Origin: a virus
Reading direction: 5' to 3' (one strand)
DNA: 64,000 nt
Virus record (IMG/VR): IMGVR_UViG_3300003267_000132
Location: 2,304-66,303 of that record
Positions 6,501 to 54,464 of this stretch are shown here, in pieces. The position numbers were made by a program, and so were the translations under genes. Numbering within the stretch: position 1 is the first letter of the stretch; the number at the start of each line of letters is the position of its first letter. Under the pieces are notes generated by a model. The model saw only the letters and a program-made list of their open reading frames with translations, did no database searches and had not been told where the DNA came from.

Positions 6501-6655
6501 GTGTCCGGACCGCCGCCGTCGCTGATGAAGGTGCTGTCGAGGTCGTCGTTGGTACACGCCGCGGCATTGGTCGGGCCGCCATTGAACGTGATGTCGAACC
6601 GTTCGGACGTAATCTCCGCGTCGGGCCGCAGGGCCGTGGACTGATTGATCGTCAA
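3590..6655 (-). CDS. Large distal-tail / host-recognition protein with beta-sandwich (Fn3/CBM-like) modules
   Basis: Immediately downstream of the tape measure; Thr/Ser/Gly-rich; C-terminal DYEAP...YRAR and PIGRRNPVV motifs typical of actinophage Dit-like proteins. Confidence 0.7.
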   Translation of the reverse strand: MTINQSTALRPDAEITSERFDITFNGGPTNAAACTNDDLDSTFISDGGGPDTANFQVSLGTFTVPTGAQIRSVSVRVRISGSTSQVLAMGLVDGVTGDGIIGSFSTVTGDGTTHTVTGPSHTTGPSGSWTQADIDNLRVRIFGVVGGTIPNIYEIAAIVEWNEAPNSTRTTDDGQTTSGSPIITSPKTLFRRPALGSGTDVGRSITGAGIPAGTTIASIKATTIASGSNGVALPTATINVADASTFAASGRIEIDTSAGRQVVTYTGKTATTFTGCTGGTGNMSTGNVVQQPTMSANASATATGVAITTGTINWITAPTEGQVLHTSGQVSVRWTFYDPDVDTQERYRVKIFTLLATTLPSFDPDTTTATWDSGEVLSSAQQATSDTIPANSYVVYVKVGDSGSGGRYSPWDNNAFSLAIDVPNAPTLSLGLGFERIIAIVTGYGNLAPQGISAEGPGLDLNNSGNPHFTKISNVANLTMNTDSRAEHGQDVITVQATSTGGVTFDSDALPQIVVPVNPGDDWAARCAFRALSNPRTCTLTVTFKTAAGASVGSSATATVLTESTTAWARTGATFNSAALALPVPATARFMVLRFGTQASVANENHIIDSVQVTRNGADTGFQPGGFVAGPNLLSEAQASATTQDGWSNKSNATVQRKANLGFDSGPCWSMTAVAAADMSMQTPPTLPVTPDRFHTFMGWGKPVTTTRQMRFDIFWFKADGSASSTASTTGTAFQPSIAGGWSFMCCVAIAPSDAAYARVVVNVLSPAAGEEHRFHLFGFWEGVSDMWVPAGELHEWFALDRSQDDQVTWDEVEDEEWNFDLGDHTERLVIDDYEAPRGGALWYRARMFAKVSRIDAVNATTEVGDLASPYTIAGPITLESDGNMILRSVEHPELVSRLCVTGTQVESVSTESQSEFQPIGRRNPVVNVDTVHGQRFHITVYFDEDDDWESFKTLRAAQEVMLFKTCYGDRNFEDPSPQEQYYVRFGPEHRTVRLSTNFLADTQYRQHRTVSFDLIEVDRP

Positions 6656-8928
6656 CTGGCACGCCCTGTTCCGGCCACGGCGTGGTCGATGATGCGCCGC
6701 AGCGATGCGCCAATCTCGTCGCGGGCGACGGTGCGGAACGCCTCGACGGTGGCGCGGTCAGCACTTCCCTGCACCGCGACGTTCACCTGCACAGCACCAT
6801 CCCCGATCGTTATGGTGCTGGCCGTCGAGTTGTTGACGGCCCGCCCGGACACCAATGCCTGCGTCAGCGCGGCGGGGATGACCAACTCGCCACCGTGAGC
6901 GATGACCAACTGCGGGCTGCCGACCGGACCGGCGACGATTCCTCCGCTGCCGAGGATCTGGCGCGCGACGTGGAAGATGCCGCGGGCGACACTCTTGGCG
7001 GGACCGGGAAGGATGTCGATGGCGTCGTTGATGACACCCTCGATGGCTTTCTTCACGTCACCGACGAGCGCCTTGATGCCATTGGTGATCCCGATGATGA
7101 TCGACTGCGCGAGCCGGATACCGGCCTTGGTGAAGTCGCCCACCAGGTTCTCGGCGGTCGTCAGGATGCTGCGGATGACGTTCTCGATCGTGCCCCTGAT
7201 GTCATTGAAGATGTTGATGACCGTCTGCTTGATCGTATTGAACGCCCGCGACCAGTGACCGGTGAGCAGGTCGAGGAAGGTGCCAATGATGCCCAGTACG
7301 AGATCGCGGGCGACGCGGAAGATTCCTGCGATCTGGTCCCACCCGATACGCACAAGGCCAACGATGAAGTCGAAGCCGATCGTGAAGGTCGCCCTGATGC
7401 TTTCCCATGCCAACGTGACCAGCGGCACGACAATGTCGCTCAGAATGCGGAACGTGTTCGCCAGTTGATCGGCAAACGGTCGCAGGATCGACACCATCAG
7501 GTCGAGAGCGCCCTGGAAGATCTGCTTGATCTCGTCCCAGTGGGTCCGCCAGAACTCGGTCAGCGCGGCGATGTTCTCCCGCAGGAACCCGACCGGACCG
7601 GACCCACCAACGAACTCGATCACCCGTTGACCGAACCTGCCGATGGCACCGACGACATCTTCCAAGGTTCGACCGAACGCCACGAACGCGTCGCCAACGG
7701 CATGCACGATGTCCCGGAAGGTCTGAGACTTCTGGTAGGCGATGACGATCCCCGCGGTCAGGGCGGCGACTGCGGCGATGACGATCGTGATCGGTCCGCC
7801 GATCAGCGCAATGGCACCTTCCAGTAGGGTGCCACCTTCGGCGGCGGCGGCCATTGCCCCGACAAGCTCGGAGATCACCTGGACGAAGTTGACGACCTTG
7901 ATAGCCGCGAACGCCGCCGCCAAGGCTTCCAGGATGGGGACGAGATTGGTCCCGATGTGTTCGGCCAGGCCGTCAAGCGCGGGGAGCAGCGTGTCGCGCA
8001 CGAACTCACCGAGAAACTTGACGGGTGGGTTCACCTTCTCAAACAGCACCGCGCCGAAGACCGCTGCCTTGGTCTGCGCGGCCCCGATCTTGTCCGTGCC
8101 TTCGCGGAACCCACCGATGAAGTCGCGTATCGGGGTAACGACACGCCCAATAGCTCGGCTTGTCGCGTCGATCGCCGCGGGCAGATGGGCGGACATGAAC
8201 TCGGCCATACGGTTCAGGACCGGGAGCACCGCGTTGCCGATCTGCTCCTGAATGTTCCCGAGTTGCACCTTGAGCTTGCCAATCGGAGTGGCGACCGCTT
8301 CAGCCGACCCTCCGAACTCTGTCGTCAGTTCCTTGAGGATGATCTTCTGCGCGTCGAGGGCGTGGCCGGTCTTGACCAGCGTTTCGATCTGGTCCTTCTG
8401 TGACTGCGTGAACGACACTCCGACGCGCTGGAGAGCGGTGACGCCCTTGATCGGATCGTTGAGTGCCTTGCCCAACTGGATTGCCGACGACGACACGTCG
8501 GTCCCCAGGGCGACGCTCATGTCGGCCAGGATCGATGTCGCCTGGTTGAAGATGTCGTTGCCCTTGCCCGCTTCGTTGCGGACGTTGGTGAAGGTGAGCA
8601 GCAGGTTCTCACCCTTCTCGATGGCCTCGTCGTCGATGCCGGTCAGGTTCGACAGCGACGTCGCCAGCTTGTCGACGTCGGCGGTCGACACCTTGGCCGC
8701 GCCGCCCGTCGACTTGATCACTGCCGCCGTCTGCGCCGCGATCTTGTTCGACTCGGCCGCGGCTTCGACCGACTTCTTCACGAAGTCGAAGCCCTCGCGG
8801 ACCGCGAATGCCCCGGCAAAGACGGCGGCTGCCTTCTTGGCAATGGACCCGAACCGCGACTCGGTCTCGCGTTCGAAGTCCTTCGTGTCGGGCCGAATCC
8901 GGATACCGGCTTCGCCGATGATGTCCAC
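6652..8928 (-). CDS. Tape measure protein
   Basis: 758 aa, Ala/Gly/Ile-rich and helical; AIQLGKALNDPIKGVTALQRVGVSF; W-spaced repeats; follows the tail chaperones. Confidence 0.93.
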   Translation of the reverse strand: MDIIGEAGIRIRPDTKDFERETESRFGSIAKKAAAVFAGAFAVREGFDFVKKSVEAAAESNKIAAQTAAVIKSTGGAAKVSTADVDKLATSLSNLTGIDDEAIEKGENLLLTFTNVRNEAGKGNDIFNQATSILADMSVALGTDVSSSAIQLGKALNDPIKGVTALQRVGVSFTQSQKDQIETLVKTGHALDAQKIILKELTTEFGGSAEAVATPIGKLKVQLGNIQEQIGNAVLPVLNRMAEFMSAHLPAAIDATSRAIGRVVTPIRDFIGGFREGTDKIGAAQTKAAVFGAVLFEKVNPPVKFLGEFVRDTLLPALDGLAEHIGTNLVPILEALAAAFAAIKVVNFVQVISELVGAMAAAAEGGTLLEGAIALIGGPITIVIAAVAALTAGIVIAYQKSQTFRDIVHAVGDAFVAFGRTLEDVVGAIGRFGQRVIEFVGGSGPVGFLRENIAALTEFWRTHWDEIKQIFQGALDLMVSILRPFADQLANTFRILSDIVVPLVTLAWESIRATFTIGFDFIVGLVRIGWDQIAGIFRVARDLVLGIIGTFLDLLTGHWSRAFNTIKQTVINIFNDIRGTIENVIRSILTTAENLVGDFTKAGIRLAQSIIIGITNGIKALVGDVKKAIEGVINDAIDILPGPAKSVARGIFHVARQILGSGGIVAGPVGSPQLVIAHGGELVIPAALTQALVSGRAVNNSTASTITIGDGAVQVNVAVQGSADRATVEAFRTVARDEIGASLRRIIDHAVAGTGRAS

Positions 8929-9290: not shown

Positions 9291-9586
9291 CCGCCACCGT
9301 ATTCCGAGATCAGCCACTGGACCAGTTCGGTCAACTGATCCAGGGTGACGATGTTGTCGCGGTCGTGCAGAACGTCGAAGAACCGCGCCGCGTCGTCGTC
9401 TTCGATGACACCCCGCAGGAACGCGTCGAGGTCGGGCATCGACACCCGGTCATGGCGCAGGATATCGGTGAACAGCCCTGCCGGAGCCGACGGGATGCAG
9501 CGGAAGCTCTGGCCACCCAGCCGGAACTCGATGGGTTCCGACTCCCGTTCCGCCACGGCGGCGTCGAAGTCACGGAATCGTGTCAT
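9134..9586 (-). CDS. Tail assembly chaperone (gpG-like)
   Basis: Position; ...LVQWLISEYGGGRPTEPSDSS ending typical of actinophage tail chaperones. Confidence 0.8.
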   Translation of the reverse strand: MTRFRDFDAAVAERESEPIEFRLGGQSFRCIPSAPAGLFTDILRHDRVSMPDLDAFLRGVIEDDDAARFFDVLHDRDNIVTLDQLTELVQWLISEYGGGRPTEPSDSSGNGRPNTMQNLTDDNSAEVEPIFSASHFEPSSTPATPASSSG

Positions 9587-9597
9587 GAGCCGGGAGC

Positions 9598-10011
9598 CTA
9601 GCGTTCGACCCTAAGGCTGCTGAGCATCCCGCGCGCCTTGCTGAAGCCTTCCTTCAGCTTCTTCTTCAGGTACGGCCCGAAGTCGGAGCCGGGGTGGTTG
9701 ACTCGCGGCAGGAAAACGACCCGCCCGACCTTGGGCCAGAAGAAGACCAGCAGCGGATTGCCCTCGATGGGGTGCGGTCGGGTCTTGGTCTTCTCCGACC
9801 CCACGTCGACGAAGCCACCGGTCCCGTCGACACCGACCCGCTTGACCAGTGACTGCCCCAGGAACTCCTTCGGGAACTCCGACCGCATCGCCCCGATGGT
9901 CTCTCGCTTGACCTGCTCCGAGAAGACGATGCACAGCCGCATGGCCGGGCCGTCCTTGCCGACCAGGAGCTTGGATACCGCAATCGGGTCGAAGCGGATA
10001 TTGGTCGCCAT
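9598..10011 (-). CDS. Neck / HK97 gp10-like protein
   Basis: TRPHPI...LVFFW...VFLPRVNHPG motif; position. Confidence 0.65.
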   Translation of the reverse strand: MATNIRFDPIAVSKLLVGKDGPAMRLCIVFSEQVKRETIGAMRSEFPKEFLGQSLVKRVGVDGTGGFVDVGSEKTKTRPHPIEGNPLLVFFWPKVGRVVFLPRVNHPGSDFGPYLKKKLKEGFSKARGMLSSLRVER

Positions 10012-10499
10012 CAGAGGCCGATCTGGATGGTGAGCAGCATCCCCGCGAACCCGCCTTCCGGTCCGACGGCAAGGCAGCGCCCGAGCGAGATGTTGGAGCA
10101 GCGCCCGAGAATCTGGTCGTTGCCGTGACCGAGCACGACGGCTTCGACCATGAGCCAGCCGTCGATCATCCGCTGGCGGGCTTCCTGGTCGAGGACGGTC
10201 GGGGTGGGTGGCGTCTTGACGTTCGGCCCGTCAGACACCGAGGCGCAGCGCAGGATCAGAGCGCCGATCTCAAGCGTCCGCACCGAGCCGCAGTTGAGTC
10301 GATTGGTGTTCTCCTGACCGGGACCACCCGAGAAGGCACCGATCATCCCGACGACGACTTCTTCGCACTCCCACACGATCTGCCCGGTGTGGACGTACCG
10401 GCGTTCGGGGAGAGTCACGCCCTGCGCGGTGAAGTGCGACTCGATGACCGACAGAACGTCGTGGCAGACGTCGTACAGGATGGGTGGGGCGTAACTCAC
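10011..10499 (-). CDS. Tail terminator-like protein
   Basis: Start moved to the GTG at 10499 (GTGA overlap). WECEE, ILRC and GPEGG motifs as in cluster-B-like actinophage neck proteins. Confidence 0.65.
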   Translation of the reverse strand: MSYAPPILYDVCHDVLSVIESHFTAQGVTLPERRYVHTGQIVWECEEVVVGMIGAFSGGPGQENTNRLNCGSVRTLEIGALILRCASVSDGPNVKTPPTPTVLDQEARQRMIDGWLMVEAVVLGHGNDQILGRCSNISLGRCLAVGPEGGFAGMLLTIQIGL

Positions 10500-11629
10500 A
10501 GGGCACCACCGTAGGCCCCGGTCACCACGGCTTCGCGGATCGCGACCGCCGCGCGCTGCGCCGCGCGCCCGTCGCGGGTCCATGGCGGGAACACCGAGTC
10601 GACCATGCGTTGGCGACCCAGCCGGTGCTCCGGGTAGTCGGCCAGCGCCGTCGAGATAGCGGCAGCCAGGTCGGCGGGGTCTTCGCAGTGGGGCACATCG
10701 ACCGTCCAGTCCCAGAAGCGCCCGCCATGGTGGACGTCGCGTCGGTACCACGGCGCGGACAGCCAGACAATGGGCTTGCCGGTTACCGCGAACTCGACCC
10801 CGGTGCTGCTGTTGTCGATGACGTAGCAGTCGGCCCGATCCATGACAGCTTCGAAGGACGGTTCGAACTCGATCCCGTTCATCTCCCACCAGCGTCGCAG
10901 CCGGTCACCCCATCGTGGGTGTGCGTGACCGAACAGCCGGAAGTGCTGCGCCAAGCCGGGCACGTGCCCCCGGAAGTGCTCCCATGCCGAGGTCGTCTCG
11001 TTGATGAGCCGGATATCGGCATGGAAGGACACGCAGACAAGGGGAGGGTCGAACCCTCGCGCAGAAGGTTTGGCGACGATCGACGGAGACGTCCGACCCT
11101 CCGTGGCGGACCCGGGGAGTCGAACCCGCGGTGTCTCCGGCTTATGAGGCCAGCGTGGAACCGTTTCACCCGTCCGCCTGTCGTCGACCTTAGTCCAGCG
11201 GTCAAGGCGTGGCGACCCGATGGTGATTGCCGGTGCGTCGGGGTAGCGGTCGCGCCAGCGGCGGGCGATCTGCTCGTTGGGGCACAGAAACAGGATGCAG
11301 TCTTCGTGTTCGACCGACCCTGCGTAGGACGGATGGGCGCAGCCCACCGGGTCGCCGTCGTAGGTCTGGCCTGCGCCGTGCTCGACGTAGATGAACGGGC
11401 GGCGGCACGCTCGCGAGTCCTGGAAACTGGCGACGACGATTGGCTGACCGTTGACGGTGGGGTGGCCATGGCGCACGTGTTCGGGGTCGACGCCGCGACT
11501 GGTCGCGTAGAGCATCAGGTCCTGCCGCACCCACCACGTTCCGCGTTCTTCGGGGTCGAGCGCGAACCAGATGTCGAACAAGTGGTCGGCGTACTGCGAC
11601 TCGCTGGCCGAGAAGTCAAGCGGCAGCAC
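10496..11629 (-). CDS. CDP-glycerol glycerophosphotransferase / GT-B family protein (TagF/TagB-like) with a ~45-aa insertion
   Basis: EHG, GSPRLD, HAHP and ADCYVIDNSSTGVEFAVTGKPIV motifs; start placed at GTG 11629. Confidence 0.75.
   Translation of the reverse strand: MLPLDFSASESQYADHLFDIWFALDPEERGTWWVRQDLMLYATSRGVDPEHVRHGHPTVNGQPIVVASFQDSRACRRPFIYVEHGAGQTYDGDPVGCAHPSYAGSVEHEDCILFLCPNEQIARRWRDRYPDAPAITIGSPRLDRWTKVDDRRTGETVPRWPHKPETPRVRLPGSATEGRTSPSIVAKPSARGFDPPLVCVSFHADIRLINETTSAWEHFRGHVPGLAQHFRLFGHAHPRWGDRLRRWWEMNGIEFEPSFEAVMDRADCYVIDNSSTGVEFAVTGKPIVWLSAPWYRRDVHHGGRFWDWTVDVPHCEDPADLAAAISTALADYPEHRLGRQRMVDSVFPPWTRDGRAAQRAAVAIREAVVTGAYGGAL
11104..11178 (-). tRNA. tRNA(CAT)-like cloverleaf nested in-frame inside the glycosyltransferase CDS (Met/Ile2-like, possibly pseudo-tRNA)
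   Basis: GGCGGAC GG GTGA AACGGTT CCAC G CTGGC CTCATAA GCCGG AGACA CCGCGGG TTCGACT CCCCGG GTCCGCC A. This gives a 7-bp acceptor stem, D-loop GG, 5-bp anticodon stem with CT-CAT-AA loop and GGTTCGACTCC T-arm. Non-canonical points: G at position 8, bulged T-stem, no encoded CCA. Confidence 0.7.
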
Positions 11630-14402
11630 GGGTGGCGAGCCGCGCGAAGAGTTCTTCGTAGTGCGGGATGAGCACGTCCCAGGAGATGCCCGCCGCAATC
11701 CTGTCGGCCTCGGCTGACAGCGATGCGACTTCGGCTGGTCGCGCCGCGAGTTCGTCCATCCGGCGCGCCAGGTCGCGCGGGGACACGTCATGCAGCGGGA
11801 TCGGACCGACGAGTGAGTTGAACTCGCGGCGCGACTGGCAAGGCAGGCGCATCCCCGGCGGGAGAATCTGGCGTTGCGGCTCGGCGTCGGGCATGAGCAC
11901 GACCAACCCCGACGACAGCGCCTCGTTCATGGGGAGGCTCTGCCCGCCATAGCGGCGGGGAAGCACCAGGACGTCGGTGTCGTCGTAGAGCTGCCAGTAG
12001 TCGGGCATGTCGCCAATGTGGACCTCCAGGTCGATGTGCGCTCCGTAGCGCATCGGTGCCCGGCACGGCTGCATGGATCGGACGACGACGTGCATCGGTT
12101 GGGAGACGAAGCCAAGTGCTTCCCACAGCACTCTGGTCCCGGCGCGGTCATGCGCGGCGGGGTGCCCGATGACGTGCAGGAAGGTCTTCGCCTCGGTCCG
12201 CTGCCGATAGGGCAGCCGCTGCCGGTCGACGCCATGCGGAAGCAGGACCGGGTCGGGCAGTCGCTCCATGTTCCACGTCGTCGGCACCGCCAGCACATCG
12301 GGGATCGGTGCCCAGTCCGGGGCGAGGATGTGATGGGTGAACTCGTAGTTCGCCACAAGAATCGTGTGAATTTTCATATCGGCGCACAGCCGAGTGAACC
12401 AGGGCAGGTAGAACGTCTCGCACCCGAGCACCACGTCGAGATCCGCGAGCCAGTTGCGGACGTCGACCTCAAAGATGCGGTCATGGCGCGCCACCGCCAG
12501 CGTGGCCGGGTTGTACTCCCGCCAGCTACAAGGGTACGGGGACAGATCCCCCATGTCGATCCCGAACACCTTGGCCGGTTGCAGGTGGCGCGCTAACTCC
12601 GACGTCTGCACCGCCAGCCCGCGTCGGTCGGCGCGTGCACCGAAGAGACCGACCCGGATGGCGCGCGATATTTCGCGCGGCGCGACGTAGGCGGCGGGCA
12701 CGTCGCGGTGGGGATTGGGGGCACCGAACGGGACCATCGGCGTGTCGTAGGCCCACCGCATCTCGTACTTGGACTCACCCTCGCGCCCGTCGAGATGCGT
12801 CGACCGCTTCATGTCGCCCGACGGCGCGTAGATCCAGGTGCGGAACCGCTCCCAGCCTTCGTAGCCGTACTCCTGCCAGTGAGTGACGAGCACCCCGTAC
12901 ATGGAGTCCTCGATCATCGTCCGCGCTTCTCGCCCGAAGAACCGGGTGAGCATGTCGCGGTAGAAGTCGGTTCGCGCCAGGTGTGGTCGCTGGCTCCACT
13001 GCACGGTGCGCAGTAACGGCGCTCCCGCGACGTCATGCGGCTCGGCGTCGAGAACGAGATGGCGATGCGGCTCCAGGATCGACGCTTCGTGATGGAGCCG
13101 GATCAGGTTGCAGGTGCCTTCCTGTAACCCGTCGAGCAGCGATTGCCACGGCAACTGCTCACCGAACAGCGGCGTGTCGTGTTCGACGAACAGGATGGCC
13201 GGGGTGCGCACCAGATCGAGCACCCGCCGGGTCATCTCGGCCTGATGCAGATGCTCGTCGTGCAGGACCGGCAGGACGTTGCGCCAGCGGTTGTTGGCCA
13301 GCCAGAGCAACCGCCGCGTGTACTCCGCGTAGTCGGCCCGCCGCCCTTCCTGTTCGGCGCGAACCCCGTCGACCATGACCAGGATCTCGGCGCGCGGCAG
13401 GCGTTCCCGCACCGACGCGACGGTCTGTTCAATGACCGAGGTGTCCGGGTGCGACGGAATCGGGGACGTCGGGATCAGAACGGTGATCCGGTCGTCGACA
13501 GTCGGTTCGCTGTCGTCGGTTTGTCGGACGCTCACCAGGTCGTCGCGCAGCGCGTATGCCAGTTCCCGCTTGTGGTGCTGCCACCACGCGAAGATGCGGT
13601 TGGCGTTGGCGGGCCACTCGCGGACGAGTTCGTCGATGGCCTGGTCGATGTCGGTCCATGACCGCAGGACAGGCAACGGATGCTCGTCACCGAACAAGGT
13701 CTGCCAGTACTCGGGCGACTCGACGATGGGGATGCACCCGGCTTCCAGAGCTTCGAAGAGCCGGAAGGTGTCCGGGGTCTGCGGCCCCGCGGGACAGGGA
13801 GCGACCTTCGCCGCGACCATGCCCGCCGCGTACTCCGCGATGTCGACCCCTTCCATGAACCCCGCGGTTTCGATGACGCGCCCGTCGCCACGCCTACGCC
13901 GTGAGAGCGCACCGGCAAGTTCCTGGCGGGACCGATGCGAGATCTGACCCGCGAAGAACCAGTTGAGCGGCTTGTCCAGGGGGTCCGCTGGCAGATGCTC
14001 GCGGTAGGACCACGCCCAACCGTCCCCCAGGGGCCTGTCTGTGCCCGTCACGCTGCCCGCGACCGGCGTCTGCACCCAGCGACGCATCTGCACGTTCGCC
14101 AGCTTGTGGCGGGGAAATACGCCCTCCTCGTCACCGGTCAGGATCACCAGCGCCCACCCCAACCGGTAGAGCCATGTCGCGATTCGGTCGGCGTCTTGGA
14201 CATGCCAGCGCGCCGGGATGACGACGACCGCACCGGGAGCGTCCGCGGGGAGCGCGTCAAAGCCACCTTCGTGGTGGCGGAAGGTCGGGTGTCCCGGCGC
14301 GCGCCAGAGGGTGCCCGCCATGAGTTCTTCCAGCAGACACTGATCGGCATACCCGCGGGCACGGATGTCGTCGTGCAGCGAGAGCCAGAGGACGTCGATC
14401 AT
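11616..14402 (-). CDS. Multi-domain glycosyltransferase (exostosin/GT47-like + GT-A-like + GT4-like)
   Basis: WFFAGQ...PCPAG...DTFRLFEALEAGCIPIV; ITVLIPTSPIPSHP...FVEHD; DVLVLPRRYGGQSLPMNEALSSG. Start at ATG 14402 (ATGA overlap). Confidence 0.85.
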   Translation of the reverse strand: MIDVLWLSLHDDIRARGYADQCLLEELMAGTLWRAPGHPTFRHHEGGFDALPADAPGAVVVIPARWHVQDADRIATWLYRLGWALVILTGDEEGVFPRHKLANVQMRRWVQTPVAGSVTGTDRPLGDGWAWSYREHLPADPLDKPLNWFFAGQISHRSRQELAGALSRRRRGDGRVIETAGFMEGVDIAEYAAGMVAAKVAPCPAGPQTPDTFRLFEALEAGCIPIVESPEYWQTLFGDEHPLPVLRSWTDIDQAIDELVREWPANANRIFAWWQHHKRELAYALRDDLVSVRQTDDSEPTVDDRITVLIPTSPIPSHPDTSVIEQTVASVRERLPRAEILVMVDGVRAEQEGRRADYAEYTRRLLWLANNRWRNVLPVLHDEHLHQAEMTRRVLDLVRTPAILFVEHDTPLFGEQLPWQSLLDGLQEGTCNLIRLHHEASILEPHRHLVLDAEPHDVAGAPLLRTVQWSQRPHLARTDFYRDMLTRFFGREARTMIEDSMYGVLVTHWQEYGYEGWERFRTWIYAPSGDMKRSTHLDGREGESKYEMRWAYDTPMVPFGAPNPHRDVPAAYVAPREISRAIRVGLFGARADRRGLAVQTSELARHLQPAKVFGIDMGDLSPYPCSWREYNPATLAVARHDRIFEVDVRNWLADLDVVLGCETFYLPWFTRLCADMKIHTILVANYEFTHHILAPDWAPIPDVLAVPTTWNMERLPDPVLLPHGVDRQRLPYRQRTEAKTFLHVIGHPAAHDRAGTRVLWEALGFVSQPMHVVVRSMQPCRAPMRYGAHIDLEVHIGDMPDYWQLYDDTDVLVLPRRYGGQSLPMNEALSSGLVVLMPDAEPQRQILPPGMRLPCQSRREFNSLVGPIPLHDVSPRDLARRMDELAARPAEVASLSAEADRIAAGISWDVLIPHYEELFARLATRAAA

Positions 14403-15025
14403 GGTCGGACCCTTCCGACGGTCCAGAGCCAGTCGGGGAAGATCTTGCCGCGCTCCTGGGTCACGTCGACCAGTCCCGCCAGGCGGAACCACTCGGCCAC
14501 GACCGCGGGGGGTACATGCCCTTCATCTTCGAACTCCCGGTCGTAGACCGTCTGGATGACCAACGAGCCGCCTGGCCGCAGGTAGTGGGCGACGTTGGCG
14601 ATGATGGCGAGCGCGGTCGGGCGCAGGACGTGCTGGAGGACAGCCACCGAGTACGCGGCTTCCAGGGCGAAGACCGGGAGCGGTCCTTGCGCGGGGCTGC
14701 ACACGAAGTGGACTCGGTCGGTCAGTCGCCGCCGGTACGACTCCTGATGGGCGTACTCCAACAGCCGCACCGAGAAGTCGATGCCATAGACCTCGGCACC
14801 GGGGAACGCTTCCGCGATGGGAAGGGTCAGCCTGCCGATGCCGCAGCCGACTTCCATGACGGACCGGACATCGAAGGGCAGCAACTGGCGCAGCAGGTCG
14901 ACGCACTTGGTCGTCGTGGCGTCGTAGTCGTCGGGGTCGACCGACCAGACCGCGAACCGCGCTTCCGCCAGCGAGTCGGCCTGCCGGTCCCAATATGCCG
15001 GGGATGACTCCTGCTGCAAGCTCAC
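14399..15025 (-). CDS. Class I SAM-dependent methyltransferase
   Basis: VMEVGCGIGRL, YGIDFS, VLQHV and LRPGG motifs; start at GTG 15025. Confidence 0.88.
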   Translation of the reverse strand: MSLQQESSPAYWDRQADSLAEARFAVWSVDPDDYDATTTKCVDLLRQLLPFDVRSVMEVGCGIGRLTLPIAEAFPGAEVYGIDFSVRLLEYAHQESYRRRLTDRVHFVCSPAQGPLPVFALEAAYSVAVLQHVLRPTALAIIANVAHYLRPGGSLVIQTVYDREFEDEGHVPPAVVAEWFRLAGLVDVTQERGKIFPDWLWTVGRVRP

Positions 15026-15780
15026 TTCGGCTTCCGACCCAACTGGTGCCAGAACACCCAGTGCTCTTCGTGGTCGACGGCCAGGCACATGCCGACGTAG
15101 CCGACATCGGCCATGAAGTGCAGGAGGTCGGTCGGGGTGTCGCCGTACAACTCGTCCATGAATTCGGGGTGCATCGACAGGTAGACGAGTGGCTTCATGC
15201 CGTGTAGGAGGACCCGCGCCCCGCGCAGCACCCGCAACTCCGACCCCTCGACGTCCATGGTGATCACGTCGGGGATGATGTTGGTCTGGCGCACGAAGTC
15301 GGTCAGGGTGATCTGCGGGGTCACGTCGGTTTCTTGCGCCAGGTGCCGGAAACCATGGTCCCCGATTACCGGTAATTCGGTCGCGCACCGGGGCCACCCC
15401 GACTCGGGATCGTGGGCGAGCAACAACAATCCGGCGTCGTCGAGCAACGCCGCATCACTCGTCGCGTCGGATGCGAACCCGACCCAGGTCGCCAGCGGGT
15501 GCCGCAAGTTGTTGGCGTCCCAGATGGCCTTGATGTTCGGCCAGACCTTGGGGTTGGGTTCGAACAGGCACACCCCCCCGTTCGGCCAAACCCACGACGC
15601 GATGAGCGCCGAAATGTCGCCTTCCTCGGCCCCGATGTCGTACACGATGTCGCCGCGCCGAATGTTGGCGTTCATCGAGTCGAGCCGTTCGACTTCCCAT
15701 CCCGTCTGCCACTCCGGCCGCGCCGCCCGGTGCTCCGGGAGCATGAGGTTCCAGCGCCCGTTGATCTTCGTGTCGATCAT
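15022..15780 (-). CDS. FkbM-family methyltransferase
   Basis: VYDIGAEEG, FEPNP and MDVEGSELRVLRGA motifs. Confidence 0.88.
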   Translation of the reverse strand: MIDTKINGRWNLMLPEHRAARPEWQTGWEVERLDSMNANIRRGDIVYDIGAEEGDISALIASWVWPNGGVCLFEPNPKVWPNIKAIWDANNLRHPLATWVGFASDATSDAALLDDAGLLLLAHDPESGWPRCATELPVIGDHGFRHLAQETDVTPQITLTDFVRQTNIIPDVITMDVEGSELRVLRGARVLLHGMKPLVYLSMHPEFMDELYGDTPTDLLHFMADVGYVGMCLAVDHEEHWVFWHQLGRKPK

Positions 15781-16091
15781 TGCATCGGGTACCGCTCGCA
15801 CTGCCAGTCAATCCAGGGCTTGTCTTCCTGGAGTTGCGCGCAGAGGCCCTTGTAGTACTCATCTTCGAACGGTCGCTGGATCGGTGGCTCAACGATTGGC
15901 GGCACATCGACCACAGGTGCAACGGTGGGTGGCGCGATGACTGGGGGAGGGGTGATTACCGGTGGTTCGACGGTCGCGGGAATGGCTTGAGGAATGATTG
16001 CCGGGGGTTCTGCTGTCTTCGCCGACCCCGCGGGTGCGGCTGGCATGACGATGGACGCCAGCGCGACGGTCACCGCTACGACGTACTTCAT
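15777..16091 (-). CDS. Secreted Pro-rich hypothetical protein
   Basis: Signal-peptide-like N-terminus, PP-rich linker, overlaps both neighbours. Confidence 0.6.
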   Translation of the reverse strand: MKYVVAVTVALASIVMPAAPAGSAKTAEPPAIIPQAIPATVEPPVITPPPVIAPPTVAPVVDVPPIVEPPIQRPFEDEYYKGLCAQLQEDKPWIDWQCERYPMQ

Positions 16092-16435
16092 CGTGGACCT
16101 CCTGCGTAGTGGACGGCGTGACCGTCCGCGACCATCTGCTCATTGACGTTCATGCCGTCGTCCCGGATCAGCACCGCCAGATAGCGACCGTACTTCTCGC
16201 GGTGGTCCTTGATGGTCCGCACGGTAACGACCCGCTCGACCAGGTGGTTGGCGGGCGAGAGTAGTTGCACCAGATGCGACGTCGCGGCGTCACCTGCGGC
16301 CGTGCCGTGCTCAGGGGCATTGATGCCGTGCAGCCGAAGCGTCACGTCGATTCGCACGTCGAGTCCCAGGTCCAGCCGGGCATGGATCGTGTCACCGTCG
16401 ACCACCCGCGTCACCTCACCCCGATACTCGTACAT
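16088..16435 (-). CDS. Thermonuclease (SNase-like) family nuclease
   Basis: MYEY...RVVDGDTI...RLHGINAPE...KYGRYLA...VNEQMVADGHA; start at 16435. Confidence 0.9.
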   Translation of the reverse strand: MYEYRGEVTRVVDGDTIHARLDLGLDVRIDVTLRLHGINAPEHGTAAGDAATSHLVQLLSPANHLVERVVTVRTIKDHREKYGRYLAVLIRDDGMNVNEQMVADGHAVHYAGGPR

Positions 16436-17406
16436 CAGATCATCCCCTCCGACCGCAGCAGGTGTTCCAGTTGCTGCATCCGCACTTCGTAGGTGTGGTG
16501 CTCCAGGACGTGGGCACGACCAGCGCGGCGGACCTCTTCTCGTTCGTCGGCATTGGCCAGGTAGTAGGCGATCGTCGCGTCGAGTTCGTCCCACTGCCCC
16601 AAGAGCCACAGCGCCAGGTGCTTGCCGTCGGTGAAATGCTCGTCAATCCCGTCGACCCAGGGATGGACCAGGAATCCGCCCCGCCCGAGGGTTTCGGGGA
16701 TGCGGTCGGACCAGTAGCGGGCCAGCGGTCCATCGCCGCGGGGGATCAGGCAGGAGTCTCCGACGACGACCTTGGTCGACGCGTAGACGGCGTTGAGCAG
16801 CGCGCCGCGGACGGGCTGGTTGGGGTGCGCTGGCCAGAACCGCGCGTTCCATCGGGTGCGCAGATGTTCGACGAGTCGGGGTCGATGGGTCCACTCCGGG
16901 TGGTAGCCGCCCCGCCATGATCCGACAAACGCCACGTCGGCAGCCAGCGCGGCGCGCGGCTCCTGCGGTCGGCAGTCGAACCCGGCGACGGCTGGTGGGA
17001 ACCAGCGGTGATTGATCCCCACCCTGCGCCACTCGTCGTCGTGCCCGCCATCCGCAGTACACAGCAGGTTGACGCGGAAGAACGGCTCGACCGAAATCTG
17101 GTCTTGGCGGTCCAGCCCCCACCATCGATCCAGGTGATAGCCGACGGTCGGCACGCTGTGGTCCCGCAGGACCTCGATCATCTGATGACGCTCGTCCAGC
17201 GTCCCCCCGGAAACGGCAAGGCCGTACGTTTGCGTCCACAGCAGGAAGTCGGCGTTGACCGCCATGACCGCGGACGGCACGTCGACGGCGCGGATCTCCC
17301 CTTCCTGCAAGCGGATGACGTCGTGGCCGAGCGTTTCCAGAGCTTCGGCGATGTGGCTCTCGGTCGAGAACGTCGGGCGGTGGTTGCCCAGGTAGGCGAC
17401 TATCAC
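16435..17406 (-). CDS. Glycosyltransferase (CgeB-like, GT-B)
   Basis: DVAFVGS, YASTKVVVGD and YWSDRIPETLGRGG motifs, HVLEHHTY end; start at GTG 17406. Confidence 0.82.
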   Translation of the reverse strand: MIVAYLGNHRPTFSTESHIAEALETLGHDVIRLQEGEIRAVDVPSAVMAVNADFLLWTQTYGLAVSGGTLDERHQMIEVLRDHSVPTVGYHLDRWWGLDRQDQISVEPFFRVNLLCTADGGHDDEWRRVGINHRWFPPAVAGFDCRPQEPRAALAADVAFVGSWRGGYHPEWTHRPRLVEHLRTRWNARFWPAHPNQPVRGALLNAVYASTKVVVGDSCLIPRGDGPLARYWSDRIPETLGRGGFLVHPWVDGIDEHFTDGKHLALWLLGQWDELDATIAYYLANADEREEVRRAGRAHVLEHHTYEVRMQQLEHLLRSEGMI

Positions 17407-17471
17407 GCCGGGCAGACTAACCGGCCTGAGGTCCGCGCAGGGGGACAATGCTGGCGGTACCGTTCGCGGTC

Positions 17472-17780
17472 ATGGCAGCCACTCGCGTCAAGCACGGCAC
17501 ACTCGTCGCGAACCAGATCGACACGGTGTCGTTCGACTTCCGGTACCGCACGGTCGAAGTCGTCAACCTCGACAGCAGCGCCCGCATCTACTTCACGACC
17601 GACGGGTCGGCACCAAGCGTGGCCGGGGATGACGTCGATGTCGTCCCCCCGTCATCGGCCCTGCGTGTCGTGGTCGGACGACAGTCCGGTGGCCCAGCGA
17701 CGCAGGGAACGACGGTGAAGTTGGTCTCGACCGGCACCCCTGCATACAGCGTCAGCGGTGACGACGAGTCGTCGGAATGA
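17472..17780 (+). CDS. Small beta-rich hypothetical protein (possible virion decoration)
   Basis: Coherent coding frame; TACCGT box 8 nt upstream of the ATG; ATGA overlap with the next gene. Confidence 0.65.
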   Translation: MAATRVKHGTLVANQIDTVSFDFRYRTVEVVNLDSSARIYFTTDGSAPSVAGDDVDVVPPSSALRVVVGRQSGGPATQGTTVKLVSTGTPAYSVSGDDESSE

Positions 17781-18532
17781 CACCCGAGCGCAGGTTCCTG
17801 GGTGGCGGTGGCGGTGCCGCTGGCGCGCTCGTCCCGGCACTGTCGAGCTACGCCTACCGCGGCATCGTCGGAACCTTCGCGGTGTCCGCCAGCGAGCAGA
17901 CGATCTACACCGTGCCCAGCGGCAAGAAGGCGCTTCTGTTTCGACTCCAGTACTTCTACTCGTCGGGCACGCCGTCACCGCTTGTTTATCTGGTGCCCAG
18001 CGGCCAGTCAGCCAACGATCCGAACAACAAGGCGTCGACGCCGTCACTTAGTGCTGGCCCGTCCAACCCGTCGGCGGACCTGTACTCGGTCCTGTCGGCG
18101 GGCGACACCGTGCAGGTCAACACGCAGAGCTTCAACGCCAGCAGCCTGAACTACGCACTCAACGTCATCGAGTTCCCGTCCAGTGAGCCGATGTTCGGCG
18201 TGTTTCGTTCCCAGCTTGCATCCGGTGCCGACAACACCGTCTACACCGTTCCGACCGGCAAGAGCGCCCTCGTCGCCCCGATCATCGAGCCGGTCCTGCG
18301 TGCCGGGTGGGTCTACAACAACGCGGTGTCTTCGCAGGCGCTCCGCTGGAAGGTGACACCCAGCGGCGGGTCACTCACTCAGATCCGCAGCGACACCTAC
18401 GGATCGAAGGCGACCGGCTCGCCTCTCAACGTGTCATTCCCGGCTGGTCTCACTTTGGGGGCTGGTGACGCGCTGGTCGTAAATCCGAACGGCAGCGGGT
18501 TCAACGTCTGGCTCGTCGGCTTGGAGCACTGA
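17777..18532 (+). CDS. Two-domain beta-sandwich protein, paralogous to the C-terminal part of 29854..30825
   Basis: Repeated IYTVPSGKKALL / VYTVPTGKSALV and VLSAGD / TLGAGD. Confidence 0.75.
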   Translation: MTPERRFLGGGGGAAGALVPALSSYAYRGIVGTFAVSASEQTIYTVPSGKKALLFRLQYFYSSGTPSPLVYLVPSGQSANDPNNKASTPSLSAGPSNPSADLYSVLSAGDTVQVNTQSFNASSLNYALNVIEFPSSEPMFGVFRSQLASGADNTVYTVPTGKSALVAPIIEPVLRAGWVYNNAVSSQALRWKVTPSGGSLTQIRSDTYGSKATGSPLNVSFPAGLTLGAGDALVVNPNGSGFNVWLVGLEH

Positions 18533-18709
18533 TACGTCCCACTGCCGGTGCGGGCACGGCTGGCGGTCGCACGCTGGACGGTGGTGCTGGCGGTGCGGTG
18601 ATGAATGCCTGCCACCCGATCAGGACTTCGACTCCGAAGAAGGTGACCCGCCACCGCCAGTTCCGAAGGATGGTCAGGTGTGGCGCGGACGCAGGAAGAC
18701 AACCCCCCG

Positions 18710-18874
18710 CTACGAGTCGGGTGACCACTCGTCGAACATCTGACAGGGGCATCCCGGCGACTTGCATGGCACCCGGTCCCAGTGACCCCGCTCGTAGTTC
18801 CAGACCAGGTGCGCCGACCGCCTATGCCAGCAGGCTTGGCACAGTTCCCAGGGGTGGACGTTGCGGTCAGTCAC
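18710..18874 (-). CDS. 54-aa Cys/His-rich (zinc-finger-like) protein
   Basis: Hand translation MTDRNVHPWELCQACWHRRSAH...CKSPGCPCQMF; the start overlaps the end of the adaptor gene. Confidence 0.55.
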   Translation of the reverse strand: MTDRNVHPWELCQACWHRRSAHLVWNYERGHWDRVPCKSPGCPCQMFDEWSPDS

Positions 18875-20009
18875 CAGTCCGACGGACCCGACGACCCTTG
18901 TCCGGACGCAGCACCGTCGACCGCCGCGACAGCTTGTTCGGGTTCACCGAACGCAGGAACAGGTCGACTTCGTACAGCCCCGTCTTACCTTCGTCCAAGA
19001 AGGCCATCGGGTCGAGCACGACCGCCGTCACACCCTGGCGGGTGATCTGGGTGACCCGCTCCGGCAGGTTGCACGCTCCGACCGTCTCCGGCTGACATGC
19101 CAGCGCCAGTTCGCATCCCAGCCGCGCCGCGGCGCGCATCCCCGCCACCGGCGGGGGCTGGCCGTACAGGAAGGTGACCTCCCACGTCCCGACTTCGGTC
19201 GTCGGAAGGTCCATCCGCTGGCAGCACGGCCACCCCTGCGCGTTCCCGTTCGCGTCGGCCAGACGCACCAGGTAGCGGTCGTCGTCCACGCGGTACTCCG
19301 ACGACGGCAGCACGACTCCATCCATGCGGACTTCGGTCACCCGCTGGATCGGATACGCGCCAAGGGTGATCTCGGCGATCGAGCCGCACCCGGTGCGTTC
19401 GGTCCGATTGCAGGAGCAGAACCCCCACGACGGCGACCAACTCCAAGAGCCAGGAACGGGCCAGTAGGTCCCGTAGGGTGAGTAGGCCGGAATCGGGCGG
19501 CCCCGGTCGCCAGAAGCGTGCTGCGCGCAGGGACGGACCGTCGCCTGGCAGGTGCCGGGGAACTGGCGGCCCGACAGCTGGAACAGCACGTCGCTGGCCG
19601 CTTGCAGGCAGTCCATGAGCAGCAGCGAGTCGAAGGCGTAGTCGTCGCATGGTGTGCATACGTCGGTCGTCGTCGCCCACGGCTCGCACGTGAATGCGCC
19701 GGGCGACTGGAAGCTGATCGACCCGCCGTCGACCACGTCCCACTGTTCGTTGTCACAGACCGACACGCCGTTGATCACGCCGCACCAGTGGGCCGTCCAC
19801 GCCCCCAGGGGAGCGAGGGCCGGGACCGAGTAGCTGTACTCGTAATGGCCAAGCGACAAGAAGGTAGGGGTGACCGGCCCGACAATCAGGACGTTGTTGG
19901 GGTCGAAGATCTGGATGGTCGGGTTGACCGGCGCGACCAGCGCCCCGGTGCCGTCGCGGTAGAACGCGTCAAGCACGATGGTGTTGCCGCGGGCGACTCG
20001 CTGGCTCAT
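18867..20009 (-). CDS. Head-to-tail adaptor with an extra N-terminal Ig-like segment
   Basis: AASDVLFQLSGRQF...VRPC, LPERVTQITRQGV and TGLYEVDLFL..VNP motifs of cluster-B-like adaptors. Confidence 0.8.
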   Translation of the reverse strand: MSQRVARGNTIVLDAFYRDGTGALVAPVNPTIQIFDPNNVLIVGPVTPTFLSLGHYEYSYSVPALAPLGAWTAHWCGVINGVSVCDNEQWDVVDGGSISFQSPGAFTCEPWATTTDVCTPCDDYAFDSLLLMDCLQAASDVLFQLSGRQFPGTCQATVRPCAQHASGDRGRPIPAYSPYGTYWPVPGSWSWSPSWGFCSCNRTERTGCGSIAEITLGAYPIQRVTEVRMDGVVLPSSEYRVDDDRYLVRLADANGNAQGWPCCQRMDLPTTEVGTWEVTFLYGQPPPVAGMRAAARLGCELALACQPETVGACNLPERVTQITRQGVTAVVLDPMAFLDEGKTGLYEVDLFLRSVNPNKLSRRSTVLRPDKGRRVRRTGD

Positions 20010-20299
20010 GTCCGCGCCACGTCGCAGCTCTTACACGGACAGTCGCAGGCCCCTTCATGGGTGACCATCGTCATCGCGCAGTAGTGGCGCGCCACCTGTC
20101 GAATCATGGCTTCGGTGACCTCGACGATGGTCCCGCTTTCGTCTCGCACGTACAGCATCAGGTTCAAGCCGTCGCCGTACCGGTACTTCAACTGGTTCAG
20201 GCAGTCGCCGCAGTGCATACAGACCGCCAGGTAGCTCGGTGACGCGCCAAGGTCCTGGATCTGCAGCATCCCGATCCCGGGAACGGGAATCTCACCCAC
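20006..20299 (-). CDS. Cys-rich hypothetical protein
   Basis: CxxC motifs; TAGGAT box 6 nt upstream of the GTG. Confidence 0.55.
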   Translation of the reverse strand: MGEIPVPGIGMLQIQDLGASPSYLAVCMHCGDCLNQLKYRYGDGLNLMLYVRDESGTIVEVTEAMIRQVARHYCAMTMVTHEGACDCPCKSCDVART

Positions 20300-20308
20300 G
20301 ATGCGATC

Positions 20309-20527
20309 CTACGCTGGCGCGCAGGGTCCGTACGTCTGCTGCTCCATGACGTCCAGACCCTCCAGTCGCTGCATAGTGTGAAGGCCACCGACGACCTCAA
20401 TCCGCCAGGTCGCATCCGGCAGCATGAACATCTGGCCGCACCCTGGGCAGAAGTCTTCGACTCGGGCGCTCAGGTCGATGGGGACCGGCTCCACCTCGGG
20501 CATCTTCCGCTTCCTCCTCAGCCGCAC
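20309..20527 (-). CDS. Small hypothetical protein (CPGCG)
   Basis: Fits the packed minus-strand gene order. Confidence 0.5.
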   Translation of the reverse strand: MRLRRKRKMPEVEPVPIDLSARVEDFCPGCGQMFMLPDATWRIEVVGGLHTMQRLEGLDVMEQQTYGPCAPA

Positions 20528-20850
20528 AACCGCGCGCCGTCAATGTCCAGTGCGGTGATGTCCGGGTTGAGCAGCGTCCGGGTTTCCCGCCCCTGCCGAT
20601 CGATCTCGATCGTCGCGACGACCACACCCCGCGCATTCACACCTTCGTAGGCAACTTCGTCACCGCGGCGGAGAAAGACCTCGATCCAGCCGTCCGGGTA
20701 CACCGGATAGCCGGTCGACGGCCGCACACCGGGTGCGCCCCAGTAGGTCGTGTCGCCACCCACCGATGTCAGGTACGTCACGACTCCCGGTGGGTCGCTT
20801 TCCAGCAGCGGCAGCGTGCGTACACCCGGCCTGGGTACCGGCACCTTCAC
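20518..20850 (-). CDS. Small beta-sandwich hypothetical protein
   Basis: YWG..GV.PSTGYPV resembles the C-terminal module of 26288..27847 (YIG...VTTTTGFPL). Confidence 0.55.
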   Translation of the reverse strand: MKVPVPRPGVRTLPLLESDPPGVVTYLTSVGGDTTYWGAPGVRPSTGYPVYPDGWIEVFLRRGDEVAYEGVNARGVVVATIEIDRQGRETRTLLNPDITALDIDGARLCG

Positions 20851-21437
20851 CGCTTGACCGCCTGCATCTGCACGACCATGTCGGACACCACGTTCACATA
20901 ATGGCGGATCGCGAACTCCCGGTCGCGGTCTTCAGCCCGGTCCCACGGCTCGTTGAGCATCAGGTCCATGCTGGCGATCTTGAAGTCGGCAACGATTGGG
21001 TAGTGGTCGAGCCGCTGCGATTCCCGCCACTGGCGCTGCACGTACAGGTAGCTGGCTTCGCTCATAGCGCGCAGATGAGTCGGGTCCTGCCAACAGCGGA
21101 CCGATGTCCAGTACGGGTGAATCATGGTGACGTGCGCGCCGTGGTTGCAGACCCGCCATAGCTCGTTCCAGAACTTGACGAGGTCGGGGACGTGCTCGAC
21201 GAAGTGGGAGCAGTAGACCTGACCGACCGAGTCATCCTTGAACGGCCATGGCGTCGAGAACAGGTCGGCCTGGACGTAACCGGGATCGTCAGCGGGCCAC
21301 GCGTTCGGGATCACGATGTCGACGCCGGTAAACCCCGGCTGGCGGTTCTGGCCACACCCCAGGTCCAGCCGCCATGCATCCTTGTCGATCACCAAGTAGG
21401 TGCCGTTATCCGTTGCGGCGACAGCAGTCGGGTTCAC
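20847..21437 (-). CDS. SAM-dependent methyltransferase (Methyltransf_11-like)
   Basis: LDLGCG, WPFKDDSV, SHFVEH and WQDPTH motifs. Confidence 0.85.
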   Translation of the reverse strand: MNPTAVAATDNGTYLVIDKDAWRLDLGCGQNRQPGFTGVDIVIPNAWPADDPGYVQADLFSTPWPFKDDSVGQVYCSHFVEHVPDLVKFWNELWRVCNHGAHVTMIHPYWTSVRCWQDPTHLRAMSEASYLYVQRQWRESQRLDHYPIVADFKIASMDLMLNEPWDRAEDRDREFAIRHYVNVVSDMVVQMQAVKR

Positions 21438-31504: not shown

Positions 31505-31525
31505 CGAGCATCAGACCCCCGTAGA

Positions 31526-53735: not shown

Positions 53736-53776
53736 GGGTAAGGCACCTTAGACGCTGGCGGACCGGGCGGCGCGGA

Positions 53777-54448: not shown

Positions 54449-54464
54449 GGCCCCGAAGATACCG

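Follow-up and report, generated by a model that had tools for sequence, protein, structure and literature searches.

A glycosyltransferase gene of a phage represented by the IMG/VR virus record IMGVR_UViG_3300003267_000132 contains, in frame and between its two domains, a sequence derived from a tRNA-Met(CAT) gene. In the explanation that we consider probable from the sequence comparisons below, a tRNA-Met gene, with a 60-nt hairpin adjoining it, has been captured by the gene, is decaying as a tRNA and is translated as the interdomain linker of the enzyme. The window that was analysed, 64,000 nt, corresponds to bases 2304-66303 of the 66,303-bp record (CheckV completeness 100%), and coordinates refer to the window unless stated otherwise. 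An earlier sequence-only reading of this window had described a full tRNA cloverleaf in frame within the glycosyltransferase gene; the tRNA-like sequence and its in-frame position are borne out here, whereas the completeness of the cloverleaf is not. The features of the gene are as follows.

10496..11629, minus strand: glycosyltransferase coding sequence, 377 aa, TagF/UDP-GlcNAc-2-epimerase-like, GT-B type; GTG start at 11629, the open frame reaching 11791
11192..11620, minus strand: N-terminal Rossmann-like domain, residues 58-200 of the 431-aa open reading frame (ORF), ending in GSPRLD; AlphaFold per-residue confidence (pLDDT) 89-98
11042..11191, minus strand: linker insert, residues ~201-250, read in frame and predicted to be disordered, from alignments, domain spacing and AlphaFold
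11105..11178, minus strand: tRNA-Met(CAT)-derived sequence, from Infernal (RF00005), alignment to free-standing tRNA-Met genes and blastn
11178-11172 and 11111-11105, minus strand: 5' and 3' strands of the acceptor stem
11146-11144, minus strand: anticodon CAT
11128-11127 and 11115, minus strand: extra T-stem bases
11124-11118, minus strand: T-loop
11104, minus strand: discriminator A
11043..11102, minus strand: imperfect 60-nt hairpin directly 3' of the tRNA-like sequence, minimum free energy (MFE) -33.3 kcal/mol
10523..11041, minus strand: C-terminal Rossmann-like domain, residues 251-423; pLDDT 90-98, PF04464 match at residues 289-415

A degenerate tRNA-like sequence on the coding strand

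An Infernal cmscan search of a 451-nt stretch gave a match to the tRNA family RF00005 at 11178->11105 on the strand of the coding sequence, where the sequence-only reading had placed it (11178->11104), with a score of 26.7 bits and an E-value of 0.0018. Over the whole 66,303-nt genome the same match had an E-value of 6.2e-5 and was the sole tRNA candidate. Its score is below the curated Rfam gathering cut-off of 29 bits for membership in the family, and a search of the whole window at the Rfam gathering threshold gave no match. ARAGORN likewise reported 0 tRNAs in the window, while the same program detects free-standing tRNA-Met genes in three related loci (L020, L145 and L078). The covariance-model test that had been proposed for the candidate thus singled it out within the genome and at the same time left it short of the cut-off, with nothing from ARAGORN.

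Several elements of a tRNA are well preserved. In the Infernal alignment and in the sequence itself, the acceptor stem GGCGGAC/GTCCGCC forms 7 of 7 base pairs, and the anticodon arm CTGGC-CTCATAA-GCCGG has a 5-bp stem, including one G-U pair, and a 7-nt loop, CUCAUAA, with U33 and a purine at position 37. The T-loop is canonical, the D-loop contains GG, A14 is present, the discriminator is A, G1 and C72 are paired and CCA is not encoded. Other elements are defective. The D-stem has one mismatch (13:22), and the T-stem closes only when 11128-11127 (2 nt) and 11115 (1 nt) are left unpaired as bulges; otherwise no more than 3 pairs form. Position 8 is G rather than U and position 21 is T rather than A (numbering assigned by hand). 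The MFE fold of the stretch is not a cloverleaf and is no more stable than those of shuffled sequences (z -0.43). Hence the parts named in the sequence-only reading, namely the 7-bp acceptor stem, the D-loop GG, the anticodon arm, the discriminator A, the G8 and the lack of an encoded CCA, were all seen again, and what has to be given up is the full cloverleaf, on account of the T-stem bulges, the D-stem mismatch, the score under 29 bits, the empty ARAGORN result and the MFE fold.

In a scan of positions 9500-12500, promoter-like sites were absent, as were terminator-like sites on the minus strand, that of the gene, so that there is no sign of an autonomous gene at the insert. In four DNA runs of one root-metagenome study, which may be the source of the window, the phage contigs had a sequence identical to that of the window, with zero variants. 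None of the sequencing runs listed for this sequence is an RNA run.

The insert is part of an intact reading frame

The ORF at 10496..11791 encodes 431 aa and joins both domains across the tRNA-like sequence in a single frame. Homologues start near residue 55-58 of this ORF, and the GTG codon at 11629 gives a protein of 377 aa. An independent gene call (Logan), made for a different assembly of this phage, has the identical protein (P0257), which upholds the frame noted earlier from the sequence as staying open through the insert.

Searches with the protein retrieved 504 homologues at E<=0.001 with a word-indexed method and 1,269 in an exhaustive search of representatives, mostly of about 330 aa. 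Its PF04464 (TagF-type) score of 20.5 bits is below the cut-off of 22.1 bits; many of the homologues have a precomputed PF04464 match, and the homologue in L086 scores 34.4 bits. The homologue alignment contains the conserved motifs EHGAGQ and GxPxLD, and residues that are invariant in the family are retained both before and after the insert. A profile comparison with the PDB matched UDP-GlcNAc 2-epimerase (E 0.003). The AlphaFold model, built from 66 sequences, has a mean pLDDT of 84.3 and a predicted template modelling score (pTM) of 0.80 and consists of two confident Rossmann-like domains, for which the best PDB matches found by Foldseek were UDP-GlcNAc 2-epimerase (1f6d), TagF (3l7l) and YjiC (6kqw), all of them GT-B folds (probability 1.00, template modelling scores 0.46-0.60). 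As modelled, the protein is a GT-B fold of two Rossmann-like domains joined by a linker, and since the stretch between the domains is unstructured, the tRNA-like DNA would encode part of the interdomain hinge. The insert is without secondary structure in the model, with pLDDT values of 60, 42, 42, 50 and 74 in successive blocks; values below 50 at residues 209-234 agree with the unstructured appearance remarked on earlier from the translation.

About 42 aa of the insert are extra relative to most homologues. The distance from GxPxLD to the first strand of the C-terminal domain is 59 aa in the query and 15-29 aa in 99 of 120 aligned homologues, so the alignment that the sequence-only reading had called for does indicate an insertion. 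At the DNA level, 80 loci from IMG/VR and 80 from metagenomes were compared, and in those where both domains could be located the domains lie closer together than in the query, by 57-135 nt and mostly by 117-126 nt. The exceptions were L086 and L110, whose roughly 650 extra nt are further upstream and contain an intein-like insert, and L117, for which the value was anomalous. In the query, the excess (about 126 nt) has two parts, the 74-nt tRNA-like sequence and, following it, the 60-nt imperfect hairpin.

The hairpin (11102->11043) is more stable than expected by chance (z -3.09; its stability was reached by none of 200 shuffles). Within it lies a second T-arm-like motif, GAGGGTTCGACCCTC, at 11058-11044, and the word GGGT(T)CG(G)AC occurs in three copies, at ~11127-11118, 11098-11089 and 11060-11050. 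The hairpin may be the stump of a second tRNA; as a tRNA it had no cmscan match at E<=10, and in L020, L145 and L078 the free tRNA genes had no comparable hairpin downstream.

The GC content at third codon positions (GC3) is 0.69 in the insert and 0.85 in each flanking domain, by our own arithmetic about three standard deviations low for 54 codons, which fits a non-coding origin of the inserted DNA. The insert does not behave as a repeat: blastn of its 150 nt against the window matched only itself and chance words of 10-14 nt, and a repeat element resembling a miniature inverted-repeat transposable element or a Rickettsia palindromic element was rejected for a sequence present as a single copy in the window. 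The 3' 60 nt of the insert form a significant hairpin, and no inverted repeats were seen flanking the insert as a whole. An attP core within a tRNA gene was also rejected, as no integrase family was detected with PHROGs and Pfam among 76 ORF translations, a scan that begins at position 2304 of the genome. Residues 190-262, which span the insert, returned 0 matches when used by themselves as a protein query.

The insert could, in principle, mark a glycosyltransferase that is split or dead, of which only the C-terminal half or nothing is made and in which the open frame is an accident of a stop-poor genome of 66% GC. The IMG/JGI gene call for the record of the window itself (P0121) is in line with this, in that it comprises only the C-terminal 178 aa, from V254, showing that one pipeline did not accept the read-through ORF. 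Two short proteins from long contigs, P0125 (172 aa) and P0127 (174 aa), also start exactly at the end of the linker, and it may be that certain relatives are annotated as split, or are truly split, at this point. Moreover, a second frame across the insert is open (ORF 10879..11469). On the other hand, neither domain has lost its invariant residues, and the coding signal is strong in both (GC3 0.85 each). They lie in one frame with no intervening stop, so that a ribosome starting at 11629 must make the fused protein, and it is this fused protein of 377 aa that the other pipeline calls. AlphaFold packs the two domains as in a normal GT-B enzyme, and the frame-restoring indels described below argue for selection on the full ORF. 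We therefore judge a split or dead enzyme to be very unlikely.

Free-standing tRNA-Met genes of related phages

Three related loci contain free-standing tRNA-Met(CAT) genes, identified with ARAGORN on the strand of the glycosyltransferase gene.

L020:2360-2433, glycosyltransferase strand: tRNA-Met(CAT), ~0.6 kb upstream of the glycosyltransferase gene, 67.2 bits
L145:2327-2400, glycosyltransferase strand: tRNA-Met(CAT), ~1.1 kb downstream of the glycosyltransferase gene, 61.7 bits
L078:34-108, glycosyltransferase strand: tRNA-Met(CAT), ~3 kb upstream of the glycosyltransferase gene, 60.2 bits

In L020 and L078 this is the sole tRNA of the whole record. The copy in the window is 77.8% identical to the L020 tRNA over 63 nt (blastn, E 1.4e-5). 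It resembles that gene in the anticodon arm (TTGGC-CTCATAA-GCCAG in L020, CTGGC-CTCATAA-GCCGG in the window), and all three free genes in the type of T-loop and in lying on the strand of the same glycosyltransferase, from which the free genes are 0.6-3 kb away. It differs in that the free genes are intergenic, score 60-67 bits and have a mismatched 1:72 pair and a pyrimidine discriminator (T or C), whereas the window copy is inside an ORF, scores 26.7 bits, has a paired G1:C72 and a discriminator A, is flipped at the 7:66 pair relative to L020 and has a broken T-stem. Together with the covariance-model match, these similarities lead us to consider it beyond reasonable doubt that the sequence at 11105..11178 is derived from a tRNA.

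The kinship extends to the translation. In the frame in which CAT is read as a histidine codon, the L020 tRNA yields …SVARWPHKPEDTGSSP… and the query …TVPRWPHKPETPRVRLP…, with the stretches …VARWPHKPE… and …VPRWPHKPE… sharing RWPHKPE. Compared with the three free genes and with the Rfam consensus, the query has 2 additional nt before the T-loop and 1 additional nt after it. In sum these indels add one codon: the T-loop is shifted to another frame (RVRL versus GSSP) and the frame is then restored, a pattern that appears to be the footprint of selection on the protein frame rather than on the RNA. A contig of another organism in the same metagenome matches positions 11115-11151 without the 2 nt at 11129, which is what a normal tRNA would look like at that position. 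The choice of frame may have been partly forced, since the other two frames of the L020 tRNA contain stops, yet one other frame is open within the tRNA of L145, as is the second frame in the query.

The mismatched 1:72 pairs of the free genes, as drawn by ARAGORN, are A·C in L020, A·C in L145 and C·C in L078. The tRNA-derived peptides of the homologues described below end in Ala-Thr, which would fit a discriminator A. Given the differences at 1:72 and at the discriminator, the nested copies may belong to a tRNA-Met lineage other than that of the free ones.

The possibility that a coding stretch rich in GC happens by chance to resemble a tRNA would be in keeping with the unremarkable folding energy (z -0.43), the negative ARAGORN result and the score below the Rfam cut-off. 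It would leave unexplained a single candidate with a genome-wide E-value of 6.2e-5, the match in nucleotide sequence to a genuine tRNA-Met of a phage (E 1.4e-5), the fact that precisely this stretch is an insertion absent from most homologues and the recurrence of the same tRNA-derived peptide at the linker. On these sequence comparisons chance is effectively excluded.

Recurrence at the same linker in homologues

We examined 240 homologues, composed of the 120 best from the word-indexed search and 120 further ones from the top 150 of the exhaustive representative search. With a hidden Markov model of the tRNA-derived peptide, 7 of these were identified at E<=1e-12 (P0006, P0027, P0154, P0204, P0221, P0227 and P0249), and the query was a partial match (E 0.0037). 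All seven have a peptide of the type …ARR[PA]H[KN]PEV[AV]GS.P..AT… at the same linker, and no gaps are needed to align it with the free tRNA genes translated in frame 0. The 18-residue core averages 67% identity among the seven, as compared to 48% for their enzyme domains, whereas the core of the query is only 17-39% identical to the seven cores. P0005 and P0141 resemble degraded versions of the peptide, while other homologues have unrelated large inserts at the linker. The position of the tRNA-derived peptide within the linker varies in depth, and so do its companion modules.

This recurrence was established at the peptide level throughout, with P0221 on a 26.9-kb JGI contig and the other examples on six Logan contigs, so the seven homologues would have an intact tRNA by inference from their peptides. 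The suggestion in the sequence-only reading that nested tRNAs recur in relatives is thus supported as far as the peptide goes, and at that level only. IMG/VR was queried with alignment A1 and with proteins P0027, P0006, P0005, P0125 and P0127, and JGI/ENA metagenome contigs and GTDB genomes with alignment A2; no tRNA was found in the linker of the 80, 80 and 14 loci obtained in this way or of a few extra ones. Of two DNA patterns joining the tRNA-Met arm to conserved motifs of the glycosyltransferase, the first gave 2 matches, both without a glycosyltransferase, and the second 0.

In a first tree of the 121 rows of the first set, the bearers of the peptide were scattered, and P0077, the sister of P0027 with a support of 99 in the Shimodaira-Hasegawa-like approximate likelihood ratio test (SH-aLRT), has no insert. 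A second tree included 87 of 241 rows, made up of the 8 bearers with their closest neighbours by BLAST and, in addition, 55 random others of <480 aa. The 8 bearers require 7 gains or losses on this tree. At least 4 follow from the well-supported branches by themselves, and the bearer label was not clustered (123 of 500 shuffles gave a value as low). The deep nodes are weak, so a single old gain followed by many losses is compatible with the tree.

Such a distribution might reflect a mobile cassette of tRNA-Met and structured modules that prefers this site, or a recombination hot spot, with the window copy as one old insertion. This would be a statement about origin and is compatible with decay. 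The 7 of 240 homologues with tRNA-Met-like peptides at the same linker, the number of gains or losses among unclustered bearers, the sister P0077 without an insert, the varying depth and companions of the peptide and the intein-like insert in the same family (L086/L110) all speak for it. Against it, there is one copy in the genome and no repeat of it elsewhere in the window, no transposase, integrase or homing endonuclease was found among the 76 translated ORFs, the weak deep nodes allow one ancient gain with many losses, and the evidence from homologues is at the peptide level only. We consider a cassette or hot spot decidedly unlikely.

A second linker module, …GGSGF.SS[DE]EG.K[SR]AV… and variants of it, recurs in P0006, P0027, P0005, P0028, P0148 and P0150, where it stands before, after or without the tRNA-derived peptide. 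The glycosyltransferase homologues at L086:1989-3737 and L110:2004-3722 have an in-frame insert of about 220 aa just after EHGAGQTY. In the L086 translation its first residue is Cys and its last two are His-Asn, with Ser coming next, and it contains a LAGLIDADG-like stretch, an intein-like signature; in L110 the insert is seen as an excess of ~645 nt. Pfam flagged no intein in L086 or L110. Judging from these sequences, the same glycosyltransferase family appears to host two kinds of in-frame insertion, the tRNA-derived one and the intein-like one.

Probable decay of the tRNA and retention of the protein frame

We propose that a phage tRNA-Met(CAT) gene with a structured segment downstream, maybe the stump of a second tRNA, was inserted into the interdomain linker of a GT-B glycosyltransferase, where it landed, or survived, in a stop-free frame. 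Because the frame is free of stops, the ribosome would read the insert as ~50 residues of disordered linker (…DRRTGETVPRWPHKPETPRVRLPGSATEG…) between intact Rossmann domains. Decay in this phage would have followed, by the +2 and +1 insertions that keep the protein frame while breaking the 5-bp T-stem and by the loss of U8. With its T-stem broken, U8 lost, a score under the cut-off and indels that spare the protein frame, the tRNA would no longer be functional, and most likely the window copy no longer yields a working tRNA. Among the possibilities raised in the sequence-only reading, a captured tRNA that is tolerated as a loop fits best, in view of the disordered linker, the homology to free tRNA-Met genes and the decay of the tRNA alongside an intact ORF. 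Another of these possibilities, a decoy for anticodon nucleases, is neither supported nor contradicted by the analysis.

Several observations weigh against this explanation, in addition to the half-length gene call. The acceptor stem (7/7), anticodon stem (5/5), anticodon loop and T-loop are all intact and the Infernal E-value is good, making it possible that the sequence is a mildly aberrant tRNA, or at least a substrate for RNase P and RNase Z. That the insert is translated and that no tRNA is processed from it are both predictions. The direction of the T-stem indels was deduced from the consensus and three free tRNAs, which stand in for the true ancestor. Finally, the low GC3 of the insert could equally reflect a constraint at the RNA level that still outweighs codon adaptation.

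These observations would be accommodated by a live dual-coding element, from which RNase P and RNase Z still excise a tRNA-Met-like RNA or fragment from the late polycistronic transcript, cutting the glycosyltransferase mRNA in mid-gene, so that tRNA production trades off with the expression of the glycosyltransferase or the downstream genes. Besides the intact acceptor stem, anticodon stem, CUCAUAA loop and T-loop, this has in its favour that the element is the sole tRNA-like sequence of the genome, that two related phage records each have one tRNA only, a tRNA-Met(CAT) close to the same glycosyltransferase, that the GC3 of the insert is not coding-adapted, and that the peptide is better conserved than the enzyme domains in the 7 homologues (67% versus 48%), as expected if the RNA is selected there. 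RNase P, however, measures the acceptor/T helix, which in the window copy would be lengthened by the 2-nt and 1-nt bulges of the T-stem. The score of 26.7 bits compares poorly with the cut-off of 29 and with the 60-67 bits of the free copies, ARAGORN is negative, positions 8 and 21 are G and T, the core of the query is 17-39% identical to the conserved cores of the homologues, and the pair of indels preserves the protein frame and not the RNA. We consider a live element in the window rather unlikely. The defective T-stem and the sub-threshold score leave the dual-coded locus splitting the late transcript, as envisaged from the sequence, unsupported for the window copy; for the better preserved copies of the homologues a dual-coded reading may apply.

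In a broader version, the linker of this glycosyltransferase family would be a recurrent docking site for a working in-frame tRNA-Met gene, with RNA and protein coded by the same DNA, excision of the tRNA competing with translation of the glycosyltransferase, the late transcript being cut, and spread between distant phages by site-preferring insertion or tRNA recombination, while the window copy, though aberrant, could still be a substrate and serve as a switch of mRNA processing or dosage. Taken as a whole, we find this scenario unlikely.

Comparison with known systems

Like tRNA pseudogenes and relics in general, the window copy has retained tRNA homology but lost stem geometry and tertiary positions, and falls below the thresholds of standard tRNA finders. 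It differs from these in its in-frame position within a conserved enzyme gene and in its predicted translation, the +2/+1 decay apparently being shaped by the protein frame. Rickettsia palindromic elements are short structured non-coding elements that are inserted in frame at permissive protein sites and read as an extra peptide; they are multi-copy palindromic repeats distributed over many genes of one genome. The insert shares with these the structured non-coding DNA in frame at a permissive site, but is present in one copy per genome, is derived from a tRNA and recurs in many phages at a single site of a single gene family. Inteins, too, are in-frame selfish insertions, and one such candidate occurs in the same family (L086, L110); however, inteins remove themselves from the protein, while the tRNA-derived peptide has no splicing motifs and would stay as a linker.

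To our knowledge, phage tRNA genes are treated as strictly intergenic, and annotation pipelines mask them or split an overlapping gene; here, one pipeline called half of the enzyme and the other called the whole. Our literature search, which covered the main texts of part of the journals, brought up no report of a phage protein gene with a tRNA gene lying in frame inside it, nor of such an insert recurring at a GT-B hinge. The tRNA-like gene within the octocoral mitochondrial mutS gene (PMC11353228) is similar in that a tRNA-like sequence lies within a protein-coding gene. It differs in being part of an organellar genome in which tRNA punctuation is the norm, and no recurrence at a domain linker is evident in the portions of that article considered here. 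Phage tRNA genes that carry attP, as described in the parts of a study of tRNA-dependent lysogeny on which we draw (PMC10865867), are another instance of a phage tRNA gene with a second genomic role, but involve an integrase and an intergenic tRNA, whereas here there is no integrase among the 76 scanned ORFs and the tRNA is inside a coding sequence.

The case would thus represent a tRNA gene absorbed into the flexible hinge of an enzyme and read as protein, the unexpected part being that, on peptide evidence, at least seven distant relatives have better conserved copies at this hinge. If the copies of the relatives are live tRNAs, they would constitute a compact form of dual coding that links tRNA supply, mRNA processing and virion glycosylation; if not, they would be a clean example of a non-coding RNA gene turned into a protein linker. 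In either case the GT-B hinge is marked as an insertion-tolerant site.

Genomic context

The genome has a GC content of 66%, and the minus strand carries nearly all genes. The genes of the window were placed with PHROGs and Pfam by scanning the 76 ORF translations, and the main landmarks are listed below.

6652-8928: tape measure
11616-23455, minus strand: block of glycosyltransferase and methyltransferase genes, within the structural module
30833-32170: two tail-tube genes
33143-35023: major head protein
37430-39937: portal
47617-49302: terminase

The insert-bearing gene is the last glycosyltransferase of the glycosyltransferase/methyltransferase block and lies inside the late structural operon. 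The location of this cluster in the structural module suggests a role in virion glycosylation. The block at 11616-23455 also holds a multi-domain glycosyltransferase of 958 aa (11616-14492), an FkbM-type methyltransferase (15022-15801) and another glycosyltransferase (16435-17448), all on the minus strand.

A second group of genes on the minus strand, at 52331-62438, consists of GTP cyclohydrolase I/FolE (52331-52957), a PTPS/QueD-like protein (56617-57102), a QueC-like protein (60185-61357) and a queuine tRNA-ribosyltransferase/DpdA-like protein (61407-62438). A gene set of the FolE/QueD/QueC/DpdA type is typical of 7-deazaguanine modification in phage DNA, and its presence at ~52-62 kb suggests that the DNA of this phage is modified in this manner.

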